From sequence record PQ471515.1: a stretch of DNA of 64,000 nucleotides. The stretch is one strand, 5' to 3'. Origin of the DNA: Escherichia phage Turkey3. Below, piece by piece: positions 56,456-58,096 of this stretch (positions are counted from its first letter, which is position 1; every line of letters starts with the position of its first letter). A program made the position numbers and the translations under genes. The notes under the pieces were generated by a model. The model ran no database searches. It was given only the letters and a program-made list of their open reading frames with translations, and was not told the origin of the DNA.

Positions 56456-56839
56456 TTGAGGTGTAAGTTGAGAAATACATTAATTAAAGTTAATTTATCA
56501 CATTTCGACCCATATCAGAAATATGAAGAAAGTCGAAGATATAATATTAATGAAGATTTCACAATATATTTCAATAGAACATATAGCATAATCATCATTA
56601 CTATTTGTAATCATATAAAAATTTGTATAACAAAAGACACAATAACTTTACACATCCAAGACAAAGAAACTGATATTCCAACAGATTTGGATGAAGATGG
56701 ATATGCTCAAGACGAATTCTTGAGAGATCACTTGTTGATTGAGTACAGCACTTATGCATTGATTAATTTCTACAAAGTAAATTACATTAAGTGGTTGTCT
56801 GGTGAATGTGATGATGGTATAATAGAGTATAATATATAA
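56456..56839 (+). CDS. hypothetical protein
   Basis: ORF; TTG start. Confidence 0.4.
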   Translation: MRCKLRNTLIKVNLSHFDPYQKYEESRRYNINEDFTIYFNRTYSIIIITICNHIKICITKDTITLHIQDKETDIPTDLDEDGYAQDEFLRDHLLIEYSTYALINFYKVNYIKWLSGECDDGIIEYNI

Positions 56840-56964
56840 TGAATACAATTATACTTGAAGAAGATTTGGGTGTTTATGAACAAGAAACCGACGTGAACAA
56901 AGAACCAGAATACAAGCCTAATGGCTTCTTGGAGCGTCTCTTTGATTGGCTGATGGGGGAGTGA
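56839..56964 (+). CDS. conserved 41-aa peptide, copy 1
   Basis: Below track cut-off; paralog of 57974..58096; differences mostly synonymous third-position. Confidence 0.5.
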   Translation: MNTIILEEDLGVYEQETDVNKEPEYKPNGFLERLFDWLMGE

Positions 56965-57149
56965 TGGAATATACAATATGTGCTATTATTTGTATCTTAG
57001 CTTTAATCTGTGGCGTTGGTGTGATGATTTATTGTGATGCAGAACCCAGTACTGAAGTAGGAACAACAATAACACTTAAACCTGGTGTTAAAATTAATGA
57101 TACCTATTGCTACAATCCAAACACAAACCGCTATGAGATTTGTTTATGA
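56964..57149 (+). CDS. small Cys-rich membrane protein
   Basis: Track ORF from TTG 56946; ATG 56964 in TGATG overlap. Confidence 0.45.
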   Translation: MEYTICAIICILALICGVGVMIYCDAEPSTEVGTTITLKPGVKINDTYCYNPNTNRYEICL

Positions 57150-57553
57150 GAACATTCAACATTGATTATATAATTGATTCGATTGCAGAACATATGAAAA
57201 ACATAAGTAAAAACGAGCCTGGTTTTTACTTCAACTTAGATAAACTCCATCGCAATACCAATGTATCTAGTTTTAATCGTGCTAAGAAACTTTACATCCG
57301 TATACATAACCTTTGGTACAGTGACGATACGTTGATGATAGATATCACTGTTGATGAAGAAATAACATTAAGATATATTGACGATTTTAAATCAGATGAT
57401 ATTCGTTCTGGCTCATTACCAATTGATGCTTCATATGAAGAGTATCTACAATATCAGTTCATTGATGACACATTTGGATTTGACTTTGAACTATATAATA
57501 GTATAATGAACGTATATCATGTATATGAGGATTACATTGGTGGACGCAAGTAA
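57140..57553 (+). CDS. paralog family D protein 1
   Basis: ORF; shares LQYQFIDDTFGFDF with next gene. Confidence 0.55.
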   Translation: MFMRTFNIDYIIDSIAEHMKNISKNEPGFYFNLDKLHRNTNVSSFNRAKKLYIRIHNLWYSDDTLMIDITVDEEITLRYIDDFKSDDIRSGSLPIDASYEEYLQYQFIDDTFGFDFELYNSIMNVYHVYEDYIGGRK

Positions 57554-57962
57554 AATTCCAAAATTTAATGAAACGTTAAAGTACTTTGCTGAACATGAAA
57601 TCAGTACTGAAAGACGTGGTTTAATTTCATACAATCATCATCGTGTTATGTACACTAATAATTTCCAGGGTACAGTTCGTATTAAATTTCGTAATGCACT
57701 CGATGACAATGATGAATTGTTAATTTTACTACGAAAAAGTAAGATTGAATTGACATACGCAACTCACCATATTGAAAGTGAGTTGATGTGGCACACCCTA
57801 TCAAAAAAAGAAGGGACATTACCAGTTGTTGATAATGGACCAGAAACACTTCTTCAGTACATGTTCATTGATGATACATTTAGTATTGACTATCCATCAT
57901 TTCAGTGTATACTAGATATACATGCAAAATATTACGACCGTCTACGTGATAGATTAATTTAA
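57519..57962 (+). CDS. paralog family D protein 2
   Basis: ORF; LLQYMFIDDTFSIDY; start uncertain. Confidence 0.5.
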   Translation: MYMRITLVDASKIPKFNETLKYFAEHEISTERRGLISYNHHRVMYTNNFQGTVRIKFRNALDDNDELLILLRKSKIELTYATHHIESELMWHTLSKKEGTLPVVDNGPETLLQYMFIDDTFSIDYPSFQCILDIHAKYYDRLRDRLI

Positions 57963-57973
57963 TTGGAGGCATT

Positions 57974-58096
57974 GTGATTACAGTATTAGAAGAAGATTGG
58001 GGTGTTTCCGAGCAAGGAACAGATGAATATGAATATCCAGAATATCAGCCAAAAGGCTTCTGGGAACGTCTACGTGATTGGTTGATGGGGGAATGA
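57974..58096 (+). CDS. conserved ~40-aa peptide, copy 2
   Basis: GTG start after GGAGG; ends DWLMGE like copy 1; stop 2 nt before CCA-enzyme ATG. Confidence 0.45.
   Translation: MITVLEEDWGVSEQGTDEYEYPEYQPKGFWERLRDWLMGE

Follow-up and report, generated by a model that had tools for sequence, protein, structure and literature searches.

A family of acidic mini-proteins in Asteriusvirus and related jumbo phages, with one constrained and one probably decaying copy upstream of a CCA-adding enzyme gene

Two short open reading frames (ORFs) with closely similar products lie upstream of the gene for a CCA-adding enzyme in Escherichia phage Turkey3, of which a stretch of 64,000 nucleotides (record PQ471515.1; hereafter the window) was analysed. 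They raise two questions: is selection maintaining both of the peptides, as a first-pass annotation made from the letters alone had proposed, and what might a protein of about 40 amino acids (aa) do for phages of this kind? With moderate confidence in the explanation as a whole, we propose that the two ORFs belong to a real family of small proteins, that the copy beside the CCA gene is constrained, that the other is a decaying duplicate, and that the product would be an acidic mini-protein that docks on another protein.

Two copies with different histories

Both ORFs lie exactly where the first-pass annotation had placed them. Copy 1 (pep1), at 56839-56964, is an intact ORF that starts with ATG and encodes the 41-aa paralogue MNTIILEEDLGVYEQETDVNKEPEYKPNGFLERLFDWLMGE. 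Copy 2 (pep2), at 57974-58096, starts with GTG and encodes the 40-aa acidic mini-protein MITVLEEDWGVSEQGTDEYEYPEYQPKGFWERLRDWLMGE. Like all of the genes located below, they are on the plus strand, and both match the hidden Markov model (HMM) of PHROG 34272 (phrog_34272), copy 2 over residues 1-40 of 40 (E 3.2e-31) and copy 1 over residues 5-41 (E 3.5e-16). That they are duplicates, as had been claimed, is clear from a tblastn search of the 64-kb window (E 1.4e-12), with 66% aa identity over 38 aa and 75% nucleotide (nt) identity. No third copy was found in the window, where the next match has an E of 0.45, and there are exactly two sites in the complete genome of phage Ecwhy_1, to which the window is 99.5% identical.

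When the copies are compared with each other by the NG86 method, they differ at 13 of 22.3 synonymous sites and at 16 of 94.7 nonsynonymous sites, which corresponds to a pN/pS of 0.29 and a Jukes-Cantor (JC)-corrected dN/dS of 0.17 (Fisher p 1.3e-4). The differences in the conserved C-terminal part had been described as mostly third-position and synonymous. The skew is real once the counts are normalised by sites, but the raw counts had been overstated: the last 20 codons hold 13 nt differences, distributed 4/2/7 over codon positions 1, 2 and 3, of which ~6 are synonymous and ~7 nonsynonymous. What this low ratio between the paralogues reflects is past constraint together with the constraint on copy 2, and not present constraint on copy 1, the state of which the comparison masks. 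As a caveat for selection analyses of this type, paralogues may show a low dN/dS between them even while one of the two is decaying. The proposed purifying selection on the peptide is borne out in the family at large and in copy 2; in copy 1 of the two-copy lineage, where omega is ~1, it is not.

Copy 2 is under strong purifying selection, as tight as that on the neighbouring enzymes. Its orthologue clade contains 22 synonymous versus 12 nonsynonymous minimal changes (omega ~0.12; binomial p 3.5e-9 against neutrality), and its pN/pS of 0.00-0.23 stands beside values, for the same genome pairs, of 0.14-0.20 for the CCA-adding enzyme, 0.10-0.15 for the NUDIX protein and 0.11-0.20 for glutaredoxin (Grx); the neighbouring hypothetical genes, at 0.27-0.60, lie above it. 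Judging from these substitution patterns, copy 2 is presumably the functional copy. A GGAGG Shine-Dalgarno (SD) sequence at 57965-57969, 4 nt upstream of its start, is identical in all Asteriusvirus loci examined, and the start codon itself varies (GTG in the window clade, ph0011, TH47 and UE-S1; ATG in 121Q, PBECO4, A4 and BF17). The gene ends just before that of the CCA-adding enzyme, as the first-pass annotation had pointed out, with its stop codon (58094-58096) 1 nt ahead of the ATG at 58098. Within its last codons (Met-Gly-Glu; ATG GGG GAA) lies the sequence GGGGGA (58087-58092), the SD of the CCA gene, which is conserved in the loci examined and coincides with an annotated ribosome-binding site in UE-S1. 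The record of phage WPEC5 (locus L021, 3034-3156) mislabels copy 2 as a 'nudix hydrolase'.

The changes in copy 1 were polarised against copy 2 and against the B-type single-copy relatives Turkey5 and JNE01, in which the gene at the copy-1 site has the family consensus (W9, S12, G15, E18, Y19, K27, W30) and a GGAG SD. In two-copy genomes, copy 1 is altered at exactly these consensus positions. Five nonsynonymous changes are common to the window clade and phage ph0011; three more (M4I, W9L and W30L) are specific to the window clade, and four to ph0011, two of which create stops, TAG from the TGG of the invariant Trp and TAA from GAA. Both conserved Trp codons of the window copy (56866-56868 and 56929-56931) now encode Leu, the invariant one through a change of TGG to TTG, and copy 1, with LEEDLGV in place of the LEEDWGV of copy 2, is the only family member without the invariant Trp. 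Over the two-copy lineage, copy 1 has accumulated 12 nonsynonymous or nonsense changes versus 2-4 synonymous ones (omega 0.7-1.35), a ratio that differs from that of the copy-2 clade (Fisher p 0.003-0.015), and Tajima's relative-rate test of the window copy 1 against JNE01 gives 8 versus 0 unique aa changes (p 0.005), with 2 versus 1 synonymous. The SD of copy 1 has been lost in the window (...gagtggagcatttaatATG became ...gagtataatatataATG). In ph0011 (locus L011, ~3891-4016) copy 1 survives as an unannotated pseudogene, which has an in-frame TAG at the Trp codon and a TAA at Glu13, and copy 2 is intact and likewise unannotated. From this comparison, copy 1 of the two-copy genomes is best read as a redundant duplicate that appears to be decaying at an approximately neutral rate. 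A frameshift in the copy 1 of CMSTMSU was considered as a second pseudogene and dropped, that record being UNVERIFIED and frameshift-fragmented throughout; the same record (locus L034, 2184-2381) mislabels copy 1 as 'tRNA nucleotidyltransferase'.

A rather unlikely alternative is that purifying selection maintains both copies in a functional state, with copy 1 sub- or neofunctionalised, for example retargeted to another partner by the W-to-L changes, and working with the product of the upstream ORF Y. Copy 1 is intact, and its protein is identical in the window, fEgEco12, Ecwhy_1, WPEC5 and EC.P1, but these genomes are 96-99% identical and their agreement is therefore little informative. The C-terminal ERLFDWLMGE is unaltered, yet the 3' end of copy 1 (ATGGGGGAGTGATG) would be preserved in any case as the source of the SD (GGGGGAG in the final codons, 56955-56961) and start context of the next gene, encoding a 61-aa membrane protein, whose ATG (56964) overlaps the copy-1 stop. 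The stop of Y and the start of copy 1 overlap in TAATG and are coupled, although the SD of copy 1 has been lost relative to the single-copy relatives. Positive selection could likewise produce the clustering of nonsynonymous changes at conserved positions, but omega is ~1 rather than >1, the Trp that was lost is invariant in every other family member, and the copy in ph0011 contains two in-frame stops.

A standalone acidic family in a collinear block

The family itself is already catalogued (PHROG 34272; 121Q gp538 = YP_009102125, PBECO4 gp034) and its proteins are already deposited. Nothing points to a new kind of system, and we are dealing with an ordinary catalogued family of hypothetical proteins. 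The description of the two ORFs as unannotated is correct for ph0011, where neither is annotated, but not for other relatives, in which identical proteins are deposited as hypothetical proteins (fEgEco12 g279 and g283; Ecwhy_1 245 and 241; 121Q gp538). In the literature searched, we found no paper mentioning the motif or the family, and the paper on fEgEco12 makes no mention of these genes.

Orthologues are present in 35/35 Asteriusvirus records. Diverged members occur in Xanthomonas phage XaC1 (XaC1_258), Erwinia phage Hallingskeid, Salmonella phage Munch (CPT_Munch_219) and Klebsiella phage fENko-Kae01, and further diverged ones on numerous metagenomic contigs 25-350 kb long. When 5.8e9 proteins were searched with a word-indexed profile method, 27 clusters were returned, and an exhaustive hmmsearch of 1.84e9 representatives returned 16 family proteins. 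All members are standalone proteins of 38-76 aa, and no fused or remote homologue was found in either collection. The family is confined to Rak2-like jumbo phages, within which it is inherited vertically inside a collinear 'translation/tRNA-maintenance' block, and it has been kept across phages with CCA enzymes that are only ~58% identical.

Members of the family are built from two conserved ends and a variable middle. The motif MIx[VM]LEEDWGV[ST][DE] occupies the extreme N-terminus, its core signature [LIF]EE[DN]WG[VL] being present in copy 2 and not in copy 1, and the C-terminus forms a short amphipathic helix of the type [SF]W[DE][KR]L..[WF]L. The linker between them is of low complexity and usually acidic, and ranges from ~12 residues in Asteriusvirus to ~50 in P0031 with both end motifs retained. 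The net charge of the peptide is -8 (pI 4.06), within a family range of -4 to -12. AlphaFold2 (AF2), given a 25-sequence alignment, predicts disorder except for a helix at residues 28-37, with a mean predicted local distance difference test score (pLDDT) of 63, and when the PDB sequences were searched with a profile of the peptide family, there was no match at E up to 10. Synonymous codons vary at the invariant residues (four codons for Leu, three each for Gly and Val, and Ser from both codon families), and conservation therefore acts on the protein and not on the DNA or RNA. The same synonymous turnover led us to reject an RNA element in place of a protein, together with the lack of any Rfam match and the ordinary folding energies (z -1.17 and -0.24). 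Homology of the C-terminal helix to the C-termini of neighbouring proteins (X2, ...YYDRLRDRLI; GAP32_184/185 and Yen9-04 g182, ...SFWGxLIxxDIL) was also rejected: the resemblance is visible by eye, but hhalign gives a probability of <=1% and hmmsearch E >4. Tails of the ...SFWGxLIxxDIL type end the proteins just upstream of the CCA enzyme in the peptide-less phages GAP32 (locus L030, 3407-3998) and Yen9-04 (locus L031, 3624-4004). GAP32_185 begins MLTV...DFGF, a likeness to the peptide that is not statistically significant.

In all 13+ independent contexts examined, the family occupies one collinear block. It runs from a DUF2828 protein, a lysozyme and HPF/RaiA through a variable array of genes for 110-165-aa proteins, the peptide and 0-4 more such genes to the CCA-adding enzyme, and continues with NUDIX, Grx and, further on, a macro-domain protein and a peptidyl-tRNA-hydrolase-like protein. 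The interval between HPF and CCA (56020-58098 in the window, and its equivalents in 30 loci) holds one to ~8 paralogous genes of ~130 aa (110-165 aa) and is a hot spot of gene gain and loss. Its sole constant element is the peptide gene, present in 28 of the 31 loci, and no Asteriusvirus is without an intact copy, whatever has been deleted or inserted nearby. Because it is constrained like the enzymes and is the single constant element of a fluid array, the peptide is a reasonable candidate for functional study, conserved small proteins being often missed or ignored in phage genomes.

Possible roles of the peptide

Given its composition and pattern of conservation, the most likely role for the peptide is that of a bivalent protein-binding mini-protein. 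The product would be intrinsically disordered and strongly acidic and would act by binding, its two terminal motifs (MIxVLEEDWGV and the C-helix FWERLRDWL) docking on a highly conserved partner with a spacer of free length between them. Because the N-terminal motif is invariant across phages of five host genera (Escherichia, Salmonella, Klebsiella, Erwinia and Xanthomonas), this partner should itself be conserved, either as a protein of the phage or as part of the host machinery. Going by gene position, the first candidate would be the translation/tRNA-maintenance module, with the CCA enzyme foremost, or some other member of the block; a conserved host protein that acts in translation or binds nucleic acid has roughly the same plausibility. 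In a more specific version, which we consider improbable, the peptide is a bivalent 'tether' that regulates the phage translation/tRNA-repair module: the N-motif, taken as a strand, and the C-helix would bind the CCA enzyme (or HPF/ribosome), and the acidic linker would mimic the tRNA backbone. If true, this would be the first small-protein regulator of a CCA-adding enzyme, and the duplicate in this phage would represent gene redundancy resolved by decay.

How far does gene order argue for a partnership with the CCA enzyme? In ~9 lineages the CCA gene is the next gene after that of the peptide or overlaps it, with an overlap of peptide stop and CCA start in loci L008 and L032. In Turkey5 and JNE01 it lies upstream of a different gene, and its aa sequence is conserved whatever its position relative to CCA. 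A specific link between the two is weak. An obligate subunit of the CCA-adding enzyme was rejected, the peptide being separable from CCA and the enzyme being kept without it in RaK2, GAP32 and Yen9-04. Among the 1.84e9 representative proteins, no fused (Rosetta-stone) form was found.

Several of these observations, and others, weigh against the explanation that we favour. From one to four genes separate the peptide from CCA in Hallingskeid, in loci L023, L024, L028 and L033, and in A4/TH47. Adjacency is in any case weak evidence and may reflect common descent, because the whole block is collinear. By six-frame HMM search, RaK2, GAP32 and Yen9-04 have a CCA gene and no family member; since RaK2 and GAP32/Yen9-04 sit on two separate branches of the CCA tree, the peptide has been lost independently at least twice. 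The AF2 prediction is of low confidence for a 39-residue chain. The paper on Kae01 that reports liquid chromatography-tandem mass spectrometry (LC-MS/MS), and its supplement, do not flag the homologue ENKO_221. Finally, copy 1 is an intact ORF encoding an identical protein in at least five close genomes (96-99% nt identity), and it may therefore have been neofunctionalised.

A host-directed role unrelated to CCA is possible but doubtful. According to this alternative, the peptide mimics nucleic acid and inhibits a conserved host DNA- or RNA-binding protein, as an anti-defence or takeover effector. Its strong negative charge and aromatic-rich composition would suit such an inhibitor, as would its location in a hot spot of accessory-gene turnover and its loss in some lineages, which is expected of accessory genes; the invariance of the N-motif across phages of five host genera would fit a very conserved target. 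However, arms-race effectors usually evolve fast, whereas the peptide is constrained like the enzymes, and AF2 predicts disorder in place of a rigid mimic fold. Nor was similarity to a known anti-defence or DNA-mimic protein found (no PDB matches, nothing in Pfam and a PHROG of unknown function). Far harder to credit is a leader or coupling ORF, in which the act of translation and not the product controls expression of the CCA-adding enzyme. The stop 1 nt before the CCA ATG, the CCA SD within the last three codons and the stop/start overlaps in L008 and L032 would all be in keeping with such an ORF, but the peptide is conserved over its full length with synonymous turnover, the gene is intact where 1-4 genes separate it from CCA or another gene follows, and folding z-scores and Rfam revealed no attenuator-like structure. 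Translational coupling to CCA may occur as an added effect; it does not explain the conservation.

We likewise give very little weight to a membrane-associated peptide, with the C-helix serving as a membrane-targeting sequence (MTS) together with the 61-aa membrane protein or in lysis, a lysozyme gene being nearby. The hydrophobic moment of the helix is 0.39-0.56 (muH 0.47), which is similar to that of the membrane-targeting helices of MinD and FtsA, and the gene for the membrane protein is itself directly coupled to copy 1. The helix is amphipathic but, unlike an MTS of the MinD/FtsA type, contains E/D residues and lacks a cationic polar face; these acidic residues and the net charge of -8 disfavour anionic membranes. 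There is no hydrophobic segment in the peptide, and the membrane-protein family (phrog_4189) occurs only in Asteriusviruses, whereas the peptide family is much wider.

Returning to the protein-binding mini-protein, it bears a general likeness to the small phage modulators. T7 Gp2 and the T4 proteins AsiA, Stp and Dmd are short, standalone, stoichiometric partner-binding modulators encoded in accessory-gene regions, and several of them are acidic. The peptide is like them in being a short standalone product of an accessory region, but it has no sequence or fold similarity to any of them, and in place of a compact fold the prediction is of a mostly disordered chain with a motif at each end. With leader peptides it shares the layout of a short ORF that abuts a downstream start and holds the SD of that gene, but it is selected on its aa sequence, persists away from CCA and has no attenuator structure. 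With Ocr/ArdA-like mimics it shares a high negative charge, but no stable fold is predicted for it and it has no homology to a known mimic. The type II antitoxin layout, as in MenA/MenT (PMC11541572), likewise has a small acidic disordered protein coupled upstream of a gene of the nucleotidyltransferase fold. Here, however, the downstream gene encodes a canonical CCA-adding enzyme and not a member of a toxin family, the pair is separable, and the peptide is without a DNA-binding domain.

Neighbouring genes and their rearrangement

The window belongs to an Asteriusvirus (121Q/PBECO4-like) jumbo myovirus, from a group with genomes of ~350 kb, and is AT-rich (35% GC). Over this region its identity is 99.5% to Ecwhy_1 and 96-98% to fEgEco12, WPEC5, CMSTMSU and EC.P1. 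Asteriusvirus genomes display three architectures, in which 534 denotes a 534-like gene and TM the gene for the 61-aa membrane protein: HPF-534-TM-X1-X2-pep2-CCA (A; 121Q, PBECO4, G17, SP27, BF17, UE-S1 and others), HPF-534-Y-pep1-TM-CCA (B; Turkey5 and JNE01) and HPF-534-Y-pep1-TM-X1-X2-pep2-CCA (C; the window, Ecwhy_1, fEgEco12, WPEC5, EC.P1, CMSTMSU and ph0011). The last is the union of A and B, and the two-copy state is confined to one Asteriusvirus subclade. Y and copy 1 form an accessory two-gene module that is found in only 8 phage records and is absent from 121Q-type genomes, in which no scar of a copy-1 deletion was seen upstream of the membrane-protein gene.

ORF Y, of 127 aa, spans 56456-56839, and relatives annotate it from 56468. 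The 61-aa predicted membrane protein (TM; phrog_4189) follows copy 1 at 56964-57149. Next come X1 (57146-57553, 135 aa) and X2 (57519-57962, 147 aa, or 140 aa if started at 57540), which are paralogous, as had been suggested for the genes between the copies. Each matches phrog_20693 from end to end (E 1.5e-62 and 5e-54), with 29% global identity between them and a BLASTP E of 5e-9 over the C-terminal 49 aa. The CCA-adding enzyme (tRNA nucleotidyltransferase) occupies 58098-59213 and is recognised by Pfam PolyA_pol and PolyA_pol_RNAbd and by phrog_2244 (E 9e-117). Pfam gave nothing for either peptide or for Y, X1 and X2, and PHROG gave nothing for Y. The AF2 model of X2 (pLDDT 82; predicted template modelling score, pTM, 0.79) combines one helix with an antiparallel sheet of six strands and a pair of helices at the C-terminus. 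The PDB holds no significant match to it, and all of its structural relatives are uncharacterised proteins, encoded by PBECO4, GAP32, RaK2, Yen9-03 and CBB.

A larger duplicated unit, consisting of a ~130-aa gene plus the peptide, was considered and set aside, as Y has no significant similarity to X1 or X2 (nothing by BLASTP; an hhalign probability of 17% for F3-F5). The array of the HPF-CCA interval includes the 534-like (phrog_36582), X1/X2 (phrog_20693), Y and other families, with ~8 such genes in locus L028. Profile-profile comparison joins several of these ~130-aa families through a common C-terminal block of ~40 aa, LQYxFIDDTF, and links none of them to the peptide.

In fENko-Kae01 (locus L018, 2318-5278), GenBank notes list HPF, the CCA enzyme and NUDIX as identified by LC-MS/MS in an ultrafiltered phage preparation, which raises the possibility that parts of the block are virion-associated. 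Directly 3' of the HPF gene in the window is a terminator-like hairpin with an 11-bp stem (56029-56056), where relatives have an annotated terminator, and just upstream of it is a near-consensus promoter-like site, TTGACT-17-TATAAT (56000-56028). Together these may mark the boundary of a transcription unit that holds both peptide genes. Sigma-70-like sites also lie upstream of each copy (56795-56823 and 57886-57913), but the regional count of 22 matches the 21.8 of shuffled sequence, and separate promoters for the two copies were not retained on this basis.

Several relatives illustrate how readily the interval is remodelled. Salmonella phage SD-15_S21 (locus L020, 3388-3489) has X1 and X2 reduced to a 33-aa remnant ORF, with copy 2 and its SD intact, and only A4 (locus L016, 3633-4700) and TH47 (locus L015, 2544-3611) have a 355-aa gene inserted between copy 2 and CCA. 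Synonymous divergence between the window (55688-59971) and 121Q (locus L002) is 0.13 for the 534-like gene, 0.65 for X1, 0.12 for X2 and 0.48 for CCA. Because it leaps between adjacent genes of the same genome pair, from 0.12 to 0.65, the locus appears to be a fine-scale recombination mosaic.

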